64,000 nucleotides of DNA from Escherichia coli (GCF_016026235.1 NZ_CP065613.1), one strand, 5' to 3'. Shown: positions 19,361-46,724, counted from the stretch's first letter. Numbers and translations: made by a program. Notes: a model not told the origin generated them from the sequence alone.

Positions 19361-20871
19361 TATGACTTTCCGTGTCAAACCGGAATCTCTAATTTTGACG
19401 ATTTTCTTTTTAGGTTTAATTCCCTGAGGGCGACGTAGCAGTAAATCCGACGGTGAATCACGCTGATATTCGCGGGTTGGATACCGCATTACAGAGGTCC
19501 GTCATATGAGCCTGCCACTTTCTTACGTCGCGAATCAGCTTTGTTCCGCCGTCGCCAAGCGCTAACGTGGGTTACTCTTGTACCGGGCTACGTCGCCTTC
19601 AGGGAACTGGTTATTCTCATTTTTTATTTGTGACATTGTGGTTGTTGTGCGACAGACATTGCTATTCGGCCCATATCCCAGATAAAACCCGCCAGCTCAC
19701 GTGCAACAGCAACAATTGTAATATTGACATTCTTTCCTTTGGCCTGAAGTTTTCGATACCTCTTACAAAGCCTGAGTTGAGCATCCCATGCTCTGTCAAT
19801 GACGGGGCGGGGTAAATTTTCCTGCCTTTTTGTATTGCCGGACTGATGCGTGCCGGATGACGGTAACTCCACGCTGCCTCGACCAATAGCTTTCTGGCAT
19901 AGCTGTTTCCGGCTTTGGTAATGCTGCCCTGATGTCTGCTTCCACCCGATGAATATTCTGATGGCGTGATACCAAACCATGACATCAGTTGTCGTGGATG
20001 TTCAAAACGGGTCAGATCACCCAGTTCAGAAATTAATCCAACCGCAGTAATAAACTGAATCCCTCGCATGGCTTGCAGCGCCTCTACTACCGGATACAGC
20101 CTCCATTCGGTAACGGCCTCCTTCAGGGCGGATTCCAGCCGTTCACATTGTGCCTGCCGGTCTTCTATTGTACGACGGTGTTCGTCAAAAGCTAATTGTC
20201 GCCAGGGACTTTCGAATGAGTATTTGCTGAGCCAGCGTCGGTGTGCAGGGCCCCAATCTGCTCGCCCGACATAATGGACCCCATGAACCAGAAGAAACGA
20301 TTTCAGACGTTGCCTTGCATGCCGTAAATCATCGCGGGCAGATGCCCATGCCCGGGCCAAATCCCGGAATGCCTCATCTTCAATGCCGGGTACGTAGACA
20401 GCAGAAAGATCTCCTGCACGCAGTGAACGCACAAGTCTGATGGCATCACGGCGATCGGTTTTAACCCGCTCCCCCGGTTTTTTCGGGATAAGTGAGGGGG
20501 CGCAGACCATGCAGTCAAAACCGGATTTCACCAGCCGACGATAAAGTCCATAACCACAGGGCCCCGCTTCATAAACGATACTGACCTGCGATGACTTTGA
20601 CCTGAGACGTTTACAAAGATTCTGAATATCAGTAGGTGATGTGCCAATTTTACCCATCAGTTCAACAGGTTCTGAATTGATAGCATAAGCGACAGTAATC
20701 GATTCTTTGTGAACATCTAACCCGACGTACAATGTGTTATTGTTGTTCATGCTGGCCTCCGTGGTGGAAATACCGGGGTGTAGCAACAGCTCACCCATGC
20801 GGCTCTGACAACGATGTTAACCCGCGTTAAATATCCCACGTTGGCCAGCATCTGTCTCACGGAAAGTCATA
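19361..20871 (-). mobile_element. IS110/IS1111-family insertion sequence (about 1.5 kb) bounded by 14-bp inverted repeats
   Basis: Perfect inverted repeat TATGACTTTCCGTG at 19361-19374 and its reverse complement CACGGAAAGTCATA at 20858-20871 enclose a single transposase gene plus about 290 bp of non-coding sequence on its 3' side. Confidence 0.6.
19662..20750 (-). CDS. IS110-family (DEDD-type) transposase/recombinase
   Basis: Product MNNNNTLYVGLDVHKESI... has the N-terminal DEDD/RuvC-like domain and the C-terminal transposase_20-type domain (…FGITPSEYSSGGSRHQGSITKAGNSYARKLLVEAAW…). Confidence 0.8.
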   Translation of the reverse strand: MNNNNTLYVGLDVHKESITVAYAINSEPVELMGKIGTSPTDIQNLCKRLRSKSSQVSIVYEAGPCGYGLYRRLVKSGFDCMVCAPSLIPKKPGERVKTDRRDAIRLVRSLRAGDLSAVYVPGIEDEAFRDLARAWASARDDLRHARQRLKSFLLVHGVHYVGRADWGPAHRRWLSKYSFESPWRQLAFDEHRRTIEDRQAQCERLESALKEAVTEWRLYPVVEALQAMRGIQFITAVGLISELGDLTRFEHPRQLMSWFGITPSEYSSGGSRHQGSITKAGNSYARKLLVEAAWSYRHPARISPAIQKGRKIYPAPSLTEHGMLNSGFVRGIENFRPKERMSILQLLLLHVSWRVLSGIWAE

Positions 20872-20988
20872 CTGCCTTACCTTTTCTCAGGCTATTTTTG
20901 CTTTTTTTTGCTTTTCCCCGCCACTTTATGGTGATTATCACATCAATATACATCGATAGATATTAACGTAACTGAAGTGAGGTGAAGC

Positions 20989-22203
20989 ATGAAATTTGAA
21001 CGCCATCATGAAATATTGAAACGACTCAGTAAATTCGGTTCTGTAAAAGTATCCGATCTGTCCAATAGCCTCAATGTAACGAAAGAAACTATTCGTTCAG
21101 ATCTTAATGAACTTGCCAGGCTTGGCTATCTGACTCGATGTCATGGCGGTGCTTTTATCGTCCTAGACTCGCTTGATACTATTGCGAAAAATGAAATCGC
21201 TTATGCGCTTGAAAATTATGATACAGCCCAGGGAATAAAAAAAGGCCACTCAACTATGAAAAGTCAAGTATGCGTTATTGGTTCGTTTAATGTTGATATC
21301 ATCAGTTATTTGCCGAGGCTTCCCACTATCGGAGAATCGCTTCTGGCAAGTAATTTTATATTTTCACCGGGGGGAAAAGGCTGTAACCAGGCGCTGGCAG
21401 CAAGCTTTGCCGATACTGATGTTTATTTCATAACAAAAGTAGGTACAGATCACTTTAGTGATTATGCGATCAACTTTATGAATTCGTCTAAGATTTATAA
21501 AAGTATAATTTATCAAACGAAAGAAACGCAAACCGGAACTGCCACGATCCTTGTTAATGAAGGTACTGGCGATAATGTTATTGCGATCTATCCCGGTGCC
21601 AACATGACAATGTCGTCCGATGAAATAACTATTCAGAAAGAAGCGATTATTAATTCTGATGTCATACTTCTGCAGCTCGAAACAAATTATACCGCTCTGC
21701 AACAAGCGATCACATTGGCGCAAAAAAACAGTATCCCGGTCATTATTAACCCGGCACCCTATAATGATATCGTCAACGAACTTATTCAGGATGTTGATTA
21801 TATCACCCCCAATGAAACAGAAGCTGGTTTACTGTCCGGCATAGACGTACACGATCTTGAATCAGCTAAACGAGCTGCAGAAGCTATCCACAATAAAGGG
21901 GTAAAAAACACGGTTATCACGCTCGGTAGCAAGGGCTCGCTCGCATTTGATGGCAAAAAATTCATTCATTCGCCAGCGTTTCCAGCGGTCGTTAAAAATA
22001 CGGCAGGAGCCGGGGATGCGTTTAACGGCTCTCTGGCATCAGGACTTGCGAAAGGAAAATCACTGGAATCAGCACTGTGTTATGCCAGCGCCTTTGCATC
22101 CCTAGCGGTGGAGACAAGCAATGCTTCCGACATGCCTGAACATGAATCTGTGATACATCGAATTCAGAGTATACATTATCAGCAAACTATTTTTACGCAT
22201 TAA
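20989..22203 (+). CDS. Fusion protein: N-terminal DeoR-type HTH domain plus PfkB/ribokinase-family carbohydrate kinase
   Basis: Single 404-codon ORF. Residues 1-60 look like a DeoR HTH (VKVSDLSNSLNVTKETIRSDLNELARLGYLTR). The remainder carries both PfkB signatures (GGKGCNQA and AGAGDAFNG). Confidence 0.7.
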   Translation: MKFERHHEILKRLSKFGSVKVSDLSNSLNVTKETIRSDLNELARLGYLTRCHGGAFIVLDSLDTIAKNEIAYALENYDTAQGIKKGHSTMKSQVCVIGSFNVDIISYLPRLPTIGESLLASNFIFSPGGKGCNQALAASFADTDVYFITKVGTDHFSDYAINFMNSSKIYKSIIYQTKETQTGTATILVNEGTGDNVIAIYPGANMTMSSDEITIQKEAIINSDVILLQLETNYTALQQAITLAQKNSIPVIINPAPYNDIVNELIQDVDYITPNETEAGLLSGIDVHDLESAKRAAEAIHNKGVKNTVITLGSKGSLAFDGKKFIHSPAFPAVVKNTAGAGDAFNGSLASGLAKGKSLESALCYASAFASLAVETSNASDMPEHESVIHRIQSIHYQQTIFTH

Positions 22204-22216
22204 GAAGGGACAGAGA

Positions 22217-22975
22217 ATGAATAACACCAAAAAATCACTAAAAGTGCTCTTTATTGGGGAATCCTGGCATATTCATATGATTCATTCAAAAGGATATGAC
22301 AGTTTTACCTCAAGTAAATATGAAGAAGGTGCGACCTGGTTACTCCAGTGTCTGAAAAATAGTCAGGTAGATGTCACCTATATGCCAGCACATACGGTAC
22401 AAATTGCCTTCCCTGAAGATGTGGCACAGTTAGAACAATATGATGCCATCGTTATTAGTGATATTGGTAGTAATACTTTCCTGCTACAAAATGATACTTT
22501 TTATCAGCTTCGCATAAAACCAAACGCTCTCGAACTGATTAAAGAATATGTGAATAACGGTGGTGGGTTATTGATGATTGGCGGCTATCTCTCATTCATG
22601 GGAATTGAAGCAAAAGCCAATTATAAAAATACAGTTCTGGCTGATGTGCTCCCGGTTACGATGTTAGATGGTGACGATCGTGTCGAAAAACCAGAGGGTG
22701 TTATTGCACAGCCATCACAACCTGAACATCCAGTTATTAAAGGGTTCTCTGAATATCCTTTTTTCCTAGGTTATAACCGGGCGATCGCTAAAGAAAATGC
22801 TGAGGTGGTATTAACAATAAACAACGCTCCATTACTGGTCTTTGGTAACTATCACAACGGGAAAATAGCCTGCTTTATGAGTGACTGTTCACCGCACTGG
22901 GGTACACAGCAGTTTATGTCCTGGCCGTTCTATACCGCGTTGTGGGTAAATATACTGACTCATATTGCAAGATAA
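22217..22975 (+). CDS. Hypothetical protein (possible class-I glutamine-amidotransferase-like / ThuA-like fold)
   Basis: 252-aa ORF 14 bp downstream of the kinase gene. Fold assignment comes only from the overall pattern (VLFIGESWH..., NGGGLLMIGGY) and is weak. Confidence 0.35.
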   Translation: MNNTKKSLKVLFIGESWHIHMIHSKGYDSFTSSKYEEGATWLLQCLKNSQVDVTYMPAHTVQIAFPEDVAQLEQYDAIVISDIGSNTFLLQNDTFYQLRIKPNALELIKEYVNNGGGLLMIGGYLSFMGIEAKANYKNTVLADVLPVTMLDGDDRVEKPEGVIAQPSQPEHPVIKGFSEYPFFLGYNRAIAKENAEVVLTINNAPLLVFGNYHNGKIACFMSDCSPHWGTQQFMSWPFYTALWVNILTHIAR

Positions 22976-23031: not shown

Positions 23032-23997
23032 ATGAAAAAGAATAAGTACTCAACTCCCTTATGGATGCTTGCCACGATTCTTGCGGGTATGCTCTCCCCT
23101 ATGCAATCAGCGGTGAATGGTCAATTAGGTCACTGGTTACAGGATGGTAATGCATGCGCAGTTATCTCCTTTGCCAGTGGTTTAGTCGTGATGTTTTTTA
23201 TTATTATGGCGCGAAAAGAAACCCGGCAACAATTTGCGGCAATTCCTTCTCTGATTAAAAACCGAAAAGTTCCTCTCTGGAACTGGTTTGCCGGTCTCTG
23301 TGGAGCGATGGTGGTATTTTCTGAAGGCGCATCAGCCAGCGCACTCGGGGTCGCAACGTTTCAAACCGCACTGATCTCCGCGCTATTGCTGTCTGGTTTA
23401 CTTTGCGATCGCTTTGGTATCGGTGTCGACGAGAAAAAATACTTTACCCCTTATCGCATCATCGGTGCATTATTTGCGGTTATTGCTACGATTTTTGTTG
23501 TGTCACCTCAGTGGCATTCTACCTCTTTCATCTTACTTGCCATTCTTCCGTTCTTAGCTGGTTTGCTTGCAGGATGGCAGCCCGCTGGAAATGCAAAAGT
23601 AGCTGAAGCTACGGGATCCATGCTGGTTTCAATCACCTAGAATTTCATCGTTGGATTTTGTGTTTTAGGCACAGCGCTAGCTATTCGTGTCGCATTAGGG
23701 CACGTCACTGTTCAATTACCAGATGTCTGGTGGATGTATCTTGGCGGCCCGCTTGGACTAATGTCTATCGGTTTAATGGCCATTTTGGTCAGAGGTCTGG
23801 GGTTACTGATGCTGGGGGTTGCTTCAACGGCGGGCCAGTTACTGGGATCAGTATTGATTGACGTATTAATTCCATCGCTGGGCAATAGCGTTTATCTGGT
23901 CACGATCATCGGAACACTGTTTGCACTGGTCGGTGCAATTGTTACCACTATTCCGGAATACAGAACCTCGAAAACAATGAAGAAAATGGAGGTATAA
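23032..23997 (+). pseudogene. DMT-superfamily (tandem DUF606 / YdcZ-like) inner-membrane transporter interrupted by an in-frame amber codon
   Basis: ORFs 23032-23640 and 23734-23997 are in the same frame. The intervening codons read on as membrane-protein sequence (...NFIVGFCVLGTALAIRVALGHVTVQLPDVWW-MYLGGPLGLMSIGL...) once TAG at 23638-23640 is read through. Confidence 0.55.
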
Positions 23998-23999
23998 TC

Positions 24000-25034
24000 A
24001 TGAAAGATTATCTACAAACTGTGACGGGCCCCGTCGCCCGTGAAGATATGGGGCTAACACTTCCTCATGAACATCTGTTCAACGATCTTTCCTCTGTTGT
24101 GGATGCTCCTTGCTATCCTTTTTCACAACGGCTTGTTGATAAAAAAGTCACGGCAGAAATCCAGTGGGCATTAAAACACGATCCTTATTGCTGCGCTGAT
24201 AATATGGACCGCAAACCTATTGAAGATGTGATCTTCGAAATTAATAACTTTATCTCGCTCGGTGGTCGCACCATTGTTGATGCCACAGGGTCTGAGTCTA
24301 TCGGACGAGATGCGCAGGCATTACGAGAAGTCGCATTAAAAACAGGTCTGAATATTGTTGCTTCCTCCGGTCCCTACCTGGAAAAATTTGAAAGCCAGAG
24401 AATTCATAAAACGGTTGATGAACTGGCGACAACGATCGATAAAGAATTGAATCAAGGGATTGGCGATACGGATATTCGTGCCGGAATGATCGGTGAAATA
24501 GGTGTTTCACCGACATTTACCGAAGCCGAGCATAACAGCTTGCGGGCTGCCTCGCTGGCACAGATTAACAATCCTCATGTGGCGATGAATATTCACATGC
24601 CGGGCTGGCTTCGTCGCGGTGATGAAGTACTCGACATTGTGTTAGGTGAAATGGGCGTCTCGCCAAATAAAGTCTCTCTCGCACACTCGGATCCGTCAGG
24701 AAAAGACGTGGCGTATCAGCGGAAAATGCTTGATAGAGGTGTCTGGCTGGAATTCGACATGATTGGCCTAGACATTACCTTCCCGAAAGAGGGAATAGCG
24801 CCAGGGGTGCAGGAGACTGCCGATGCCGTCGCTCATCTCATTGAGTTGGGATACGCCGATCAGCTTGTTCTCAGCCACGATGTCTTCCTTAAACAAATGT
24901 GGGCTAAAAATGGCGGTAATGGCTGGGGATTTGTTCCAGATGTTTTTCTGGCCTATCTGGCGGAGCGCGGCGTCGATAAAACGATCCTCAAAAAACTCTG
25001 TATCGATAATCCCGGACGATTATTGACCGCATAA
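24000..25034 (+). CDS. Phosphotriesterase-family (PTE/Php-like) metal-dependent hydrolase
   Basis: 344-aa product with the N-terminal metal-binding motif TLPHEHL and overall amidohydrolase/PTE layout. Confidence 0.75.
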   Translation: MKDYLQTVTGPVAREDMGLTLPHEHLFNDLSSVVDAPCYPFSQRLVDKKVTAEIQWALKHDPYCCADNMDRKPIEDVIFEINNFISLGGRTIVDATGSESIGRDAQALREVALKTGLNIVASSGPYLEKFESQRIHKTVDELATTIDKELNQGIGDTDIRAGMIGEIGVSPTFTEAEHNSLRAASLAQINNPHVAMNIHMPGWLRRGDEVLDIVLGEMGVSPNKVSLAHSDPSGKDVAYQRKMLDRGVWLEFDMIGLDITFPKEGIAPGVQETADAVAHLIELGYADQLVLSHDVFLKQMWAKNGGNGWGFVPDVFLAYLAERGVDKTILKKLCIDNPGRLLTA

Positions 25035-25043
25035 AACCATTAT

Positions 25044-25066
25044 CCCCCGGCACATTGCGCCGGGGG
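25044..25066. terminator. Bidirectional terminator between the PTE-like gene and the ggt remnant
   Basis: Perfect hairpin cccccggcacattgcgccggggg. Confidence 0.45.
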
Positions 25067-25073
25067 ATGTCAA

Positions 25074-25410
25074 TTAATACCCCGCCGTTAAATCATCCAC
25101 CAAGCGCGAGTCGGATGCGCCGTACAACTCACCATCCGACCCAACCATAATGCTTTGCGTGCTGCCCAACACCTCATTCAGCGCCACTTTCTGACCTTTT
25201 GCTTCCAGCAGCTTGAGCGTATCCGGACTAACCCCTTTTCAACACGCAGCTCGTCCGGCAACCACTGATGGTGGAAACGAGGCGTATTGGTCGCTTCGGC
25301 AACATTCATTCCACAATTGATGCTGTTCACCACCATTTGCAGCACGGTAGTGATGATCCAGCTACCGGTAACAAAGTGAGTACATAAAGGCCATACTGTC
25401 ACGAACAGTG
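25074..25410 (-). pseudogene. 3' remnant of a gamma-glutamyltranspeptidase paralogue, truncated by the ISL3 element
   Basis: Minus-strand translation gives the GGT C-terminus ...IITTVLQMVVNSINCGMNVAEATNTPRFHHQWLPDELRVEKG and ...ALNEVLGSTQSIMVGSDGELYGASDSRLVDDLTAGY with one frameshift. It ends at the ISL3 inverted repeat at 25411. Confidence 0.55.
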
Positions 25411-41060: not shown

Positions 41061-43251
41061 GGTTAATGGCCTGCGAAAAGGCAGCTGAATCTCTTCATCA
41101 TGCAGAACGGAATTGCACACAACGGACTGATACTTCTCTGGCGGATGAGAGAGGGGAAGCATTTATGTCCGGGAAAAACCACTTTATCTGACCATGCTGT
41201 TTTGTACCTGCCGGTATCCACATTTGTGGGTACCGGCTTTTTTATTCACCCTCTGTAAGGAAAAGCTGATGAAACGACATCTGAACACCAGCTACAGGCT
41301 GGTATGGAATCACATTACGGGCACCCTGGTGGTGGCTTCCGAACTGGCGCGCTCACGGGGAAAACGCACCGGTGTGGCGGTTGCGCTGTCTCTTGCTGCT
41401 GTCACGTCAGTCCCGGTACTGGCTGCTGACACGGTCGTACAGGCGGGAGAAACCGTGAGCGGCGGAACACTGACAAATCATGACAACCAGATTGTCTTCG
41501 GTACGGCCAACGGAATGACCATCAGTACCGGTCTGGAGTATGGGCCGGATAACGAGGCCAATACCGGCGGACAATGGATACAAAATGGCGGTATCGCCAA
41601 CAACACTACTGTCACCGGTGGTGGTCTTCAGAGAGTGAATGCTGGAGGAAGCGTTTCAGACACGGTTATCAGTGCCGGAGGCGGACAGAGCCTTCAGGGG
41701 CAGGCAGTGAACACCACTCTGAACGGCGGTGAGCAGTGGGTACATGAAGGCGGGATTGCAACGGTTACCGTCATTAATGAGAAGGGCTGGCAGGCCGTCA
41801 AATCCGGCGCAATGGCAACCGACACGGTTGTGAATACCGGCGCGGAAGGGGGACCGGATGCAGAAAATGGTGATACCGGGCAGACCGTCTACGGAGATGC
41901 CGTACGCACCACCATCAATAAAAATGGTCGTCAGATTGTGGCTGCTGAAGGAACGGCAAATACCACTGTGGTTTATGCCGGCGGCGACCAGACTGTACAT
42001 GGTCACGCACTGGATACCACGCTGAATGGGGGGTACCAGTATGTGCACAACGGCGGTACGGCGTCTGGCACTGTTGTAAACAGTGACGGCTGGCAGATTA
42101 TCAAGGAAGGTGGTCTGGCGGATTTCACCACCGTTAACCAGAAAGGCAAACTGCAGGTGAACGCCGGTGGTACCGCCACACATGTCACCCTGAAACAGGG
42201 TGGAGCACTGGTTACCAGTACTGCGGCAACGGTTCTTGGCAGCAACCGTTTGGGCAATTTCACGGTGGAAAACGGTAAGGCTGACGGCGTTGTTCTGGAG
42301 TCCGGCGGTCGCCTAGATGTACTGGAAGGCCATTCAGCGCAGAAAACACGGGTGGATGACGGCGGAACCCTGGCAGTGTCTGCCGGTGGTAAGGCAACAG
42401 GTGTCACCATGACATCCGGTGGTGCCCTGATTGCAGACAGTGGTGCCACTGTTGAGGGGACCAATGCCAGCGGTAAGTTCAGTATTGATGGCATATCCGG
42501 TCAGGCCAGCGGCCTGCTGCTGGAAAATGGCGGCAGCTTTACGGTTAATGCCGGGGGACAGGCCAGCAACACCACTGTCGGACATCGTGGAACACTGATG
42601 CTGGCTGCCGGGGGAAGTCTGAGTGGCAGAACACAGCTCAGTAAAGGCGCCAGCATGGTACTGAATGGTGATGTGGTCAGTACCGGCGATATTGTTAACG
42701 CAGGGGAGATTTACTTTGACAATCAGACAACACCGGATGCCGTACTGAGCCGTGCTGTTGCAAAAGGCAACGCCCCGGTAACGTTCCATAAACTGACAAC
42801 CAGTAACCTCACCGGTCAGGGTGGCACCATCAATATGCGTGTTCGCCTTGATGGCAGCAATGCCTCTGACCAGCTGGTGATTAATGGTGGTCAGGCAACC
42901 GGCAAAACCTGGCTTGCGTTTACAAATGTCGGAAACAGCAACCTCGGGGTGGCAACCACCGGACAGGGTATCCGGGTTGTGGATGCACAGAATGGCGCCA
43001 CCACAGAAGAAGGTGCGTTTGCCCTGAGTCGCCCGCTTCAGGCCGGCGCCTTTAACTACACCCTGAACCGTGACAGCGATGAAGACTGGTACCTGCGCAG
43101 TGAAAATGCTTATCGTGCTGAAGTCCCCCTGTATACATCCATGTTGACACAGGCAATGGACTATGATGCGTATTACCGTGAAGGAGATCGGTGAGTAACA
43201 TCGATGGAGATCGGTTCGTGTCACTTTCACAGAACCGTTTTTAAATTACCT

Positions 43252-44012: not shown

Positions 44013-45533
44013 TCAGTGGTAATACTCACTGCCGCGTACGTTTTCGTGTTCCATCGTGGATAACAGATCTGGTTTTGGATCCTGAACAGGTTGTTTATCC
44101 AGACCTTTTTCCAGGATCGATTTAATACCTGACAGACGCCATACCTTTGTTTTCAGAGCTCTTGCACATGCTGCATTAAGTCTGGCTTTACTGTATTTTT
44201 TATGAAGGTTCAGGAGTCCAAGGCAGAAGCGATAGCTTTGTTCCGGATGTGGACGAGAGTTCAGTATATGAAGCACATAACTATGAGTTTCACTGCCTAT
44301 GTGCCCCGCCCATTCCAGAAGACGCTCTGGCGTCCAGGTGGCATGCTGTCGATGAGCTTCAGGCATGTGCTCGTTGCGGGTACTGTAGCCATAAGTACGC
44401 TTGCGCGGGTGCACAGCAACCTCCTGCCCCTGATTGAAGAGTCTTACCAGTTCTCCGGAGATCCATGCTTCCAGTTGCTGGCCTAACAGCGAACATGGAA
44501 CCGAGTAGTAATGTTTGTCGATTTCCACGTGGTAATCGGCATGAACTCTGACTTTCTTCACCAGGGTGTAACTGTAACTGGCTTCAGGAAGAGGCTTCAG
44601 TGCGGGTTTATCAAGCTGGATGAAGAGTTCTGCACGTGAATAACCCAACTTCTGCATTATTTTGTTATTCAGTCTTTCCAGCAACTCCCGAATGCGCTGA
44701 TTAAGCGATGCAAGGCTGTAGAAGATCTCATGCCTGATTCGGGCCATGATCCAGCGTTCAACAACCTGAACGCCAACTTCAGCTTTGGCTTTATCTTTCG
44801 GTTTACGTGGCCGCGCAGGCAAAACTGCGACATTATAATGCTCAAGCATCTGCTGGTAGGTAGGGTTAACGTCAGGATCATACTTACATGCCCTGGATGT
44901 GGCGCTTTTCAGATTGTCCGGAACAACAAGTTCAGGAACGCCACCCAACCACTGGAAGCAGCGAACATGACTCATCACCCAGTCTTCAAGCTGCTGAGAC
45001 CAGGTGGCCTCTGCCCATGTGTAACTTGATGCCCCGAGAACAGCTACGATGACCTGAGCAGTTCTTATTTCTCCGGTCTCAGGGTCGGTAACGCCAACGG
45101 TAGGTCCACAGTAATCAACGAAAAGTTTTTCGCCAGCTTTATGTACCTGACGCATTGATGGTGAAGTGGTTTTGAGCCATTCACGGTACATCCGGCAGTA
45201 ATGGTTATAGCTGTAAAAACCGCCTGGATTACGCTCACAGTATTCTTCCCAGAGTAGCTGCAGCGTCACGCATTTATTACGCAGTTCCCAGTGTACTGTA
45301 GCCCAGTCAGGCAGAGAGTGCTTCTTCATCTTAACCTGGGTCTGAAGGAACGCATGTTTTAGTTTTGTATCATCCCATCCTGTAGGTAAGGGCCACTGCT
45401 TTATGCCAAGTTGAGCCGCCCGATTAGCATATCTGGATACAACGGAAGGGGAGATTGCAAGACTACGACCAATTTGTCGATGGCTGAGTCCAACACCGTA
45501 TTTAAGCCTAAGAATTTCTTTAAGTTTTCTCAT
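44013..45533 (-). CDS. istA: IS21-family transposase IstA
   Basis: HTH plus DDE domain; about 50% similar to the IstA of copy 1. Confidence 0.8.
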   Translation of the reverse strand: MRKLKEILRLKYGVGLSHRQIGRSLAISPSVVSRYANRAAQLGIKQWPLPTGWDDTKLKHAFLQTQVKMKKHSLPDWATVHWELRNKCVTLQLLWEEYCERNPGGFYSYNHYCRMYREWLKTTSPSMRQVHKAGEKLFVDYCGPTVGVTDPETGEIRTAQVIVAVLGASSYTWAEATWSQQLEDWVMSHVRCFQWLGGVPELVVPDNLKSATSRACKYDPDVNPTYQQMLEHYNVAVLPARPRKPKDKAKAEVGVQVVERWIMARIRHEIFYSLASLNQRIRELLERLNNKIMQKLGYSRAELFIQLDKPALKPLPEASYSYTLVKKVRVHADYHVEIDKHYYSVPCSLLGQQLEAWISGELVRLFNQGQEVAVHPRKRTYGYSTRNEHMPEAHRQHATWTPERLLEWAGHIGSETHSYVLHILNSRPHPEQSYRFCLGLLNLHKKYSKARLNAACARALKTKVWRLSGIKSILEKGLDKQPVQDPKPDLLSTMEHENVRGSEYYH

Positions 45534-46724
45534 AGAAATTGGAACTGTTGGCATAGGTATCCTTTACCGGAATGGCAAAAGATACAGATCAACACACCTG
45601 TGAAGTTCCAATAACATTGATGGAGATCACTGAATAACAAAATGAGTCAAAAGTGATCTCCATCGATGTTATTCAGCGATCTGTTCAAATGTTATTACCC
45701 GATCTCGATGGAAGTTATTGAGTGATCTCCTTTCATGAAAATACGCACTATGACCGGATTCTGGCAGGCTCCCGCAGCCATCAGACCGGTGTAAACGGTG
45801 AAAATAACAGCGTCCGTCTCAGCATTCAGGGCGGTCATCTCGGTCACGATAACAACGGCGGTATTGCCCGTGGAGCCACGCCGGAAAGCAGCGGCAGCTA
45901 TGGCTTCGTCCGTCTGGAGGGTGACCTGCTGAGAACAGAGGTTGCCGGTATGTCTCTGACGACAGGGGTGTATGGTGCCGCAGGCCATTCTTCCGTTGAT
46001 GTTAAGGATGATGACGGTTCCCGCGCCGGCACGGTCCGGGATGATGCCGGCAGCCTGGGCGGATACCTGAATCTGACACACACGTCCTCCGGCCTGTGGG
46101 CTGACATTGTGGCACAGGGAACCCGCCACAGCATGAAAGCGTCATCGGACAATAACGACTTCCGCGCCCGGGGCTGGGGCTGGCTGGGCTCACTGGAAAC
46201 CGGTCTGCCCTTCAGTATCACTGACAACCTGATGCTGGAGCCACAACTGCAGTACACCTGGCAGGGGCTCTCCCTGGATGACGGCCAGGATAACGCCGGT
46301 TATGTGAAGTTCGGGCATGGCAGTACACAACATGTGCGTGCCGGTTTCCGTCTGGGCAGCCACAACGATATGACCTTTGGTGAAGGCACCTCATCCCGTG
46401 ACACCCTGCGCGACAGTACAAAACACGGTGTGAGTGAACTGCCTGTGAACTGGTGGGTACAGCCTTCTGTTATCCGCACTTTCAGCTCCCGGGGTGACAT
46501 GAGCATGGGTACAGCCGCCGCCGGCAGTAACATGACGTTCTCACCGTCCCGGAATGGCACGTCACTGGACCTGCAGGCCGGACTGGAAGCCCGTGTCCGG
46601 GAAAATATCACCCTGGGCGTTCAGGCCGGTTATGCCCACAGCGTCAGCGGCAGCAGCGCTGAAGGTTATAACGGTCAGGCCACGCTGAATGTGACTTTCT
46701 GATAATCAGGTCACTCTCCTTCAG

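Follow-up and report, generated by a model that had tools for sequence, protein, structure and literature searches.

Several regulators join a helix-turn-helix (HTH) to a domain of sugar-kinase or other enzyme type that doubles as a ligand sensor, among them the ROK regulators Mlc, NagC and XylR, the regulators BirA and NadR, and the archaeal RbkR. The ribokinase of Escherichia coli, RbsK, has no HTH and is regulated by a separate LacI-type protein, RbsR. The closest described relative of the gene treated here is Salmonella enterica STM3547, described as the ribose kinase RikA by McCormick et al. (Mol Microbiol, June 2026; PMC13432705). RikA phosphorylates ribose and allows growth on it, with a kcat/Km about 50-fold lower than that of RbsK; it has 8 of the 10 RbsK ribose-binding residues and needs D343 for its ribose kinase activity, as D343A is inactive (PMC13432705). 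For RikA, PROSITE places a predicted DeoR DNA-binding domain at residues 2-57, and the neighbouring STM3548-3550 are uncharacterised (PMC13432705). Here we analyze a 64,000-nucleotide stretch of the E. coli chromosome (GCF_016026235.1, NZ_CP065613.1; the window hereafter), in which an open reading frame (ORF) at 20989-22203 is the E. coli ortholog of Salmonella rikA. It encodes a DeoR-type HTH fused to a PfkB/ribokinase-family kinase, and the fusion is genuine as well as conserved and under selection; as it has been annotated before and appears in published work, it is not new. From the sequence comparisons described below we propose, with a probability of roughly 55%, that the product acts as a one-component regulator-kinase, controlling the CRP-dependent operon to which its own gene belongs by way of upstream repeats; a further isoform starting at M90 is possible.

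The ORF and its parts, numbered from the first nucleotide of the window, are as follows.

20989-22203, plus strand: rikA ortholog, an HTH_DeoR-linker-ribokinase ORF of 404 amino acids (ATG start, 1215 nt, no in-frame stop).
20989-21159, plus strand: DeoR-type winged HTH, codons 1-57 (Pfam, the NCBIfam AgaR model and an AlphaFold2 model).
21160-21255, plus strand: interdomain linker, codons 58-89, fast-evolving and probably flexible; site of the Q81* allele in other E. coli.
21256-22203, plus strand: ribokinase domain (PfkB), codons 90-404, beginning at the candidate internal start M90.

A preliminary description, made from the sequence alone, had read this ORF as a single polypeptide with a DeoR-like N-terminus of about 60 residues, both PfkB signatures and no stop codon between the two parts, and domain annotation agrees with it throughout. 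In a Pfam search with hidden Markov models, HTH_DeoR (PF08220) spans residues 5-56 (independent E-value 4.9e-15) and PfkB (PF00294) spans residues 92-382 (independent E-value 1.2e-64), while the NCBIfam AgaR model covers residues 3-61 with 43 bits. The signatures GGKGCNQA and AGAGDAFNG lie at residues 128-135 and 339-347, respectively, and the internal MKSQVCVIGSF, from which the preliminary description had drawn a stand-alone kinase as its alternative, starts at M90 (nucleotide 21256). Both the fusion and the internal start are already in the literature. The frame is uninterrupted, and the same 404-amino-acid ORF is annotated in E. coli strain C7 with 0 nucleotide differences.

The C-terminal effector-binding and oligomerisation domain DeoRC (PF00455) gave no Pfam match in the window protein or in 48 relatives; PfkB fills the C-terminal 315 residues, where the DeoR family has DeoRC. 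The AlphaFold2 model, with a predicted local distance difference test score (pLDDT) of 87.9, consists of a winged HTH (residues 1-57, pLDDT 77-94), a linker whose residues 60-89 fall below a pLDDT of 50, and a ribokinase fold. The top Foldseek matches of this model are ribokinases, with template-modelling (TM) scores, normalised to the target, of about 0.9, and sequence and fold searches of the PDB returned no chain that spans both HTH and PfkB. Among the best NCBIfam matches, the ribokinase equivalog TIGR02152 scores 284.2 bits, slightly below its cut-off of 299.65, and PRK11142 scores 253.4 bits against a cut-off of 341, so that the curated ribokinase cut-offs place the protein near the canonical RbsK but outside it. 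It is 80% identical to STM3547/RikA (P0007) over 100% of its length; high full-length identity together with STM3548-3550-type neighbours defines the RikA orthologous group, and the window gene has both. Ribose phosphorylation by the window protein is predicted from this Salmonella ortholog. RefSeq labels for the gene include 'PfkB family carbohydrate kinase', 'ribokinase', 'DeoR family transcriptional regulator' and, recently, 'rikA: ribokinase RikA' over the full 1215 nt.

Evidence for the full-length protein comes from its relatives. A protein search with the full sequence returned full-length relatives of about 400 amino acids carrying both PF08220 and PF00294 across Enterobacterales and Orbales, in genera that include Salmonella, Klebsiella, Citrobacter, Budvicia, Providencia, Pectobacterium, Rahnella, Gilliamella and Orbus, and about 22 of the top 150 cluster representatives at 50% identity are full-length fusions, 34-62% identical to the window protein. 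In an alignment of 48 fusion homologs (33-82% identical; alignment A2), Pfam finds HTH_DeoR and PfkB in all 48, and because both domains persist down to 33% identity, the architecture is no chance extension of an ORF. Residues R5, I9, T34, R36, D38, L42 and G54 of the HTH are nearly invariant (at least 90%) in these sequences and V30 and G53 are invariant, as are the catalytic residues G129, K130 and D343, with N275 nearly so. Codon alignments give amino acid identities that are equal for HTH and kinase within each pair (0.81/0.81 with Salmonella, 0.65/0.67 with Klebsiella, 0.67/0.66 with Budvicia, 0.56/0.54 with Orbus, 0.51/0.51 with Rahnella and 0.63/0.66 in one further pair), and the ratio of nonsynonymous to synonymous substitution rates (dN/dS) in the HTH is 0.16-0.35 across ortholog pairs. 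The linker (residues 58-89) is only 0.03-0.66 identical to its orthologs. Judged from these alignments, purifying selection acts on the HTH no less strongly than on the kinase, and the comparison argues that the full-length fusion is a selected product.

As a separate observation, the proportion of synonymous differences between E. coli and Salmonella (L002:8001-8171) is 0.445 in the HTH-coding stretch 20989-21159, lower than the 0.79 of the kinase part. This low synonymous divergence at the HTH end hints at either nucleotide-level constraint or a recombination boundary.

An alignment of about 130 nt before the ATG from eight loci (alignment A3) contains four conserved blocks, namely the repeats, TATGR-N6-TCACA, TAnnnT and the Shine-Dalgarno (SD) sequence. 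In the window these are:

20896-20913, plus strand: T-rich direct repeats with G at a 10-bp period, TTTTGCTTTTTTTTGCTT, a candidate operator for the HTH.
20927-20942, plus strand: CRP-like site TATGG-N6-TCACA, at about -54 from the ATG, a putative binding site for CRP.
20964-20969, plus strand: candidate -10 hexamer TAACGT, within the TAnnnT block (T105, A106 and T110 invariant in the alignment).
20979-20985, plus strand: SD sequence GAGGTGA for M1 (anti-SD duplex -9.2 kcal/mol, in the top 0.7% of gene positions).

The T-rich repeats align over the loci, with three or four units in Providencia and Orbus, and the repeat pattern is found exactly once in the 64-kb window, where 0.01 occurrences would be expected. 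Exact matches to TTTTGNTTTTTTTTGNTT are confined to fusion loci (E. coli, Salmonella, Klebsiella, Providencia twice, and Budvicia), where they lie on the plus strand some 93 nt ahead of the ATG; none occurs in about 80 plain-ribokinase loci covering 1.14 Mb. These control loci were collected by scanning genome contigs with the two PfkB signature peptides and a family alignment, and 2 of the 80 are fusions. In every enterobacterial fusion locus the CRP-like block stands at a fixed distance and agrees with TGTGA-N6-TCACA in 8-9 of its 10 positions; agreement in at least 8 of 10 arises in the background at a rate of 0.07 per 200 nt. The ATCAC of the block is invariant in the alignment. If TAnnnT is the -10 element, a transcription start site near 20976, which we infer, would centre the CRP-like site at -41.5, a class II geometry. 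We propose from this conservation that the T-rich repeats may serve as the operator of the RikA HTH; since the loci are homologous, however, upstream conservation is not independent evidence.

Two other candidate elements were rejected. A GTGAT-N-ATCAC palindrome was considered as operator, but its left arm is unconserved beyond E. coli and Salmonella and the CRP half-site pattern fits better; TATCAC was considered as -10 element, but its T is unconserved and it lies at the wrong distance from any -35 element. Upstream of a distant fusion (P0126), at L094:1380-1410, a palindrome AAACGAAC-N6-GTTCGTTT stands in place of the T-rich repeats. This palindrome resembles the dyad operators of GlpR/DeoR type. 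The T-rich repeats are reminiscent of the T-rich operators of AgaR, a resemblance that we treat as a lead and for which a literature search on DeoR-family and AgaR operators gave nothing usable.

Downstream of rikA, the window contains three further genes and a hairpin.

22217-22975, plus strand: GATase1_like protein, STM3548 ortholog and second gene of the cassette (PDB 2gk3, E 7e-145; syntenic homologs PF07090).
23032-23997, plus strand: DMT_YdcZ transporter gene, third in the cassette, inactivated by W203* (TAG at 23638-23640).
24000-25034, plus strand: PTE-family amidohydrolase, last gene of the cassette (PDB 3rhg/4qsf 'Amidohydrolase Pmi1525', E 1.2e-174, residues 1-344).
25042-25068, no strand assigned: GC-rich terminator-like hairpin after the cassette, which the scan reported on the minus strand.

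The PTE-family neighbor is a close homolog and, by its sequence, probably the ortholog of Proteus mirabilis Pmi1525, for which esterase activity is mentioned through a citation in PMC5341072. The same GATase1_like/DMT_YdcZ/PTE cassette is headed by rikA in Salmonella, Klebsiella, Providencia, Budvicia and Orbus, with an intact DMT_YdcZ gene of 321-323 amino acids in Salmonella and Klebsiella; as the surrounding neighborhoods differ among these genera, the four genes of the cassette form a mobile module. Fusions farther from the window protein stand at the head of different operons, one with GATase1_like, alpha/beta-hydrolase and amino-acid permease genes, one with DHDPS-family, DUF386 and MFS genes, one with a nucleoside hydrolase (IU_nuc_hydro) and a NupC-type transporter (L091:6001-9532), and one with Tsx, a nucleoside hydrolase (IU_nuc_hydro) and NupC (L095:5001-9194), while at L094:1468-3843 the fusion adjoins a convergent nucleoside hydrolase gene and is not an operon head. 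The fusion gene comes first in all five operon arrangements compared, and none of these five operons contains another regulator gene. The preliminary description had suggested that the fusion could regulate the adjacent cassette; its place as first gene, the lack of another regulator inside these operons and the upstream elements would all fit such a role. The nucleoside-hydrolase operons are also biochemically sensible for a ribokinase, because hydrolysis releases ribose, and they suggest that the RikA cassette processes some ribosylated compound and that the family is tied to ribosyl-compound salvage.

Taken together, this material suggests the following model. The HTH (residues 1-57), joined by a flexible linker (58-89) to a catalytically competent ribokinase (90-404), would have that kinase in place of the usual DeoR sugar-phosphate sensor domain. 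Full-length RikA would probably dimerise through its PfkB domain, like RbsK, and could bind the T-rich, 10-bp-periodic repeats just upstream of a CRP-dependent promoter, thereby controlling its own four-gene operon of rikA, the GATase1-like gene, the DMT transporter and the PTE-family esterase. DNA binding would be altered when the kinase domain takes up ribose (or its true substrate) and ATP and closes its lid, and the same domain would phosphorylate the ribose moiety freed by the operon hydrolases. A shorter, HTH-less kinase starting at M90 may arise from the same mRNA.

Several observations, from the published expression data to the condition of the E. coli locus itself, count against this reading. 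When Salmonella RikA with a C-terminal His tag was expressed behind 278 bp of its native upstream DNA, the sole band recovered was of about 35 kDa, which fits an M90 start, and residues 90-404 by themselves complement growth on ribose (PMC13432705). By the conclusion of that study RikA "appears to begin" at M90, and its authors leave a longer isoform possible (PMC13432705). In our literature search, no DNA-binding or regulatory data were found for any member of the fusion family, nor a characterised precedent for an HTH_DeoR-ribokinase regulator or for regulators of nucleoside-hydrolase operons, nor one for YeiI function. With a simple sigma-70 scan, canonical promoters were found neither before rikA nor, on the plus strand, before M90, so the promoter proposal draws on cross-species conservation only. 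As for the T-rich block, it could be a UP-like element for the alpha subunit of RNA polymerase, which is the main alternative to an operator, or it could merely be co-inherited.

The main rival is a 315-residue stand-alone ribokinase made from M90, with the 89 upstream codons untranslated or functionless and the operon under CRP and factors encoded elsewhere, an explanation that we consider rather unlikely. M90 aligns with the starts of RbsK and DeoK, and a Met occupies the aligned position in 29 of the 48 fusions, which include most of the enterobacterial members. A conserved [KR]-G precedes M90, and we weighed it as an SD sequence for internal initiation; an SD-like AAAGG/AAGGG lies about 10 nt before M90, and the computed SD strength there is weak to moderate (-3.2 kcal/mol in E. 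coli, -3.4 in Salmonella, and -3.2 to -6.5 over the loci). The Providencia lineage has GTG in place of this Met, with a good SD sequence before it. An untranslated leader, however, would not retain an open frame, an HTH in 48 of 48 members, an amino acid identity like that of the enzyme and the low dN/dS. The SD sequence at M1 is also far stronger, at -7 to -9.5 kcal/mol in 9 of 11 loci (-4.5 in Orbus and none in one locus) and within the top 0-5% of positions in 10 of 11. Moreover, 16 of the 48 fusions, many of them distant relatives, have no Met near the domain boundary, which leaves the fusion as their sole possible product. The Salmonella experiment itself covered only tagged protein purified from clarified lysate, that is, soluble protein, and full-length RikA with an N-terminal His tag is insoluble (PMC13432705). 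Experiment thus supports an M90-only product directly, though incompletely, and the evidence of selection speaks against it. The internal start raised by the preliminary description fits the sole form detected for Salmonella RikA, whereas a kinase standing alone sits poorly with the conserved HTH and the strong M1 SD sequence.

A C-terminal tag does not separate internal initiation from cleavage, and the 35 kDa species could also reflect synthesis of all 404 residues followed by a cut in the linker, giving a free HTH peptide and the kinase, with the fusion mattering for co-synthesis only. The poorly modelled, fast-evolving linker would be compatible with such a cut, and the Q81* haplotype described below splits the HTH and kinase parts genetically. 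However, full-length RikA fused to hexahistidine-tagged maltose-binding protein (H6-MBP) was purified as an intact and active fusion (PMC13432705), and, by analogy with DeoR-family architecture, a lone HTH of about 60-80 residues without a dimerisation domain would probably bind DNA poorly. We regard cleavage as very unlikely.

The remaining points concern the locus in E. coli. The window is a chromosome segment with yeeJ-like, shiA, amn, yeeO, cbl, nac, ldtA, cobTSU, an island rich in insertion sequences (ISs) and sbcB, and the rikA gene region is present in 1991 of 5426 complete E. coli genomes. An IS110-family (ISEc45-like) element occupies 19662-20875, with its transposase gene at 19662-20798 on the minus strand; it ends 113 bp before the rikA ATG and about 20 bp from the T-rich repeats, and its insertion may alter the promoter context. 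Sequence in common with other strains begins at 20876, and the ORF plus 113 nt upstream are identical in strain C7, which differs from the window upstream of -113 and carries an IS66 remnant farther upstream. IS elements thus flank the locus, and IS1 or IS3 insertions are found at it in other E. coli strains. A fragment of ggt (gamma-glutamyltransferase; about 25074-25402, minus strand) lies directly downstream of the cassette, and an ISL3 pseudogene is also found on the downstream side. An intact ggt is at the same place in Salmonella, which suggests that a block running from rikA to ggt entered E. coli as a unit and was eroded afterwards.

Elsewhere in the window, an Ag43/Cah autotransporter ORF (41194-43194, plus strand) matches model positions 1-634 of 948 and is followed by an IS21-family transposase gene (44013-45554, minus strand). 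The adhesin gene was probably truncated by IS insertion.

Within the cassette, the DMT gene of the window carries W203* (TGG to TAG at nucleotide 23639), and strain C7 has a pseudogene annotation for it; the basis for calling the mutation is the intact gene of E. coli strain E10 (L096). Because the transporter gene has this nonsense codon, the pathway of the window strain is probably incomplete. In rikA itself, three other E. coli records (L096:3614-4828, L097:614-1828 and L098:991-2205) have Q81* in the linker, at the equivalent of window position 21229, together with C51Y and S348A. A 61-mer covering the linker is uninterrupted in 1711 of 1974 E. coli records and variant in 263 (about 13%); one variant record, L098, was checked directly and is annotated with an internal stop, and translation of L096 and L097 bore out Q81* there. 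A cluster of 315-residue proteins starting at M90 and carrying the S348A marker (P0008; 825 member sequences) probably stems from gene calls on the Q81* haplotype. Strain E10 thus combines rikA Q81* with an intact DMT gene, and the window combines an intact rikA with DMT W203*, a pair of reciprocal nonsense mutations that could represent either decay or a natural derepressed variant.

If derepression is the explanation, rikA could be a two-isoform gene in which M1 gives a full-length repressor-kinase and M90 an HTH-less kinase. PfkB ribokinases form dimers, and a dimer of one long and one short chain would have a single HTH, so that the ratio of the two starts would set how far the operator is occupied, in the manner of a built-in anti-repressor; Q81* would then be a natural derepressed variant rather than simple decay. 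We consider this two-isoform reading quite unlikely. If decay is the explanation, the cassette of the window strain would be an IS-flanked relic without remaining regulatory function, whatever the family does elsewhere. The cassette is indeed under relaxed selection and decaying in E. coli, as the DMT nonsense codon, the IS110-family element 113 bp upstream, the ggt fragment and ISL3 pseudogene downstream, the IS1 and IS3 insertions elsewhere and the 13% of carriers with a variant linker 61-mer (Q81* in the strains examined) all attest. Yet the rikA ORF, its SD sequence, the repeats and the CRP-like site are all intact in the window, the large majority of records counted above keep the linker, and a relic in this one strain would not conflict with a mechanism at the level of the family. 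We consider it quite unlikely that regulatory function has been lost altogether in the window strain.

We thus return to the regulator-kinase as our preferred reading. The sole experimental paper on RikA leans towards an HTH that is "not made", and the comparative evidence points the opposite way. If the reading is true, RikA would be a clean case of a DeoR-type regulator whose sensor domain is an active sugar kinase, and the association of the family with nucleoside hydrolases, Tsx and NupC would suggest that the substrate of the STM3548-3550 cassette is a ribosylated compound.

Compared with known systems, the window protein is most like Salmonella RikA, with which it has in common a length of 404 amino acids, the HTH_DeoR and PfkB layout, D343, M90 and the three downstream genes of STM3548-3550 type; it differs in its setting, which is an IS-rich island next to cobUST rather than the Salmonella ggt neighborhood, and in the transporter nonsense codon of the window. 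With E. coli RbsK (PDB 1gqt/1rkd) it has the kinase domain in common (E 5e-52 to 1gqt), and the model superposes at 35% identity with a TM score (target) of about 0.9. Residues N101, D103, G128, G129, K130, N133 and E231 align with RbsK N14, D16, G41, G42, K43, N46 and E143, the NXXE motif is kept at N275-E278, and D343 aligns with RbsK D255. The N-terminal HTH_DeoR is common to AgaR, GlpR and DeoR, but the window protein lacks their DeoRC domain and has a kinase fold instead. Another E. coli HTH-PfkB fusion is the pseudouridine-kinase-like YeiI, which carries an N-terminal HTH. The PRK09954/YeiI model matches window residues 85-374 only (profile positions 50-340), with 43.6 bits against a cut-off of 561 bits, and because just the kinase part matches, far below the cut-off, YeiI differs from the window protein both in its HTH and in its kinase subfamily. 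YeiI is functionally uncharacterised (PMC9061257). The logic of the ROK regulators, BirA, NadR and RbkR is the same as that proposed for RikA, although the folds are unrelated (ROK/ASKHA, biotin ligase and others). While the ROK repressors have lost their kinase activity, the rikA family keeps all of its catalytic residues, and its Salmonella ortholog is an active kinase.

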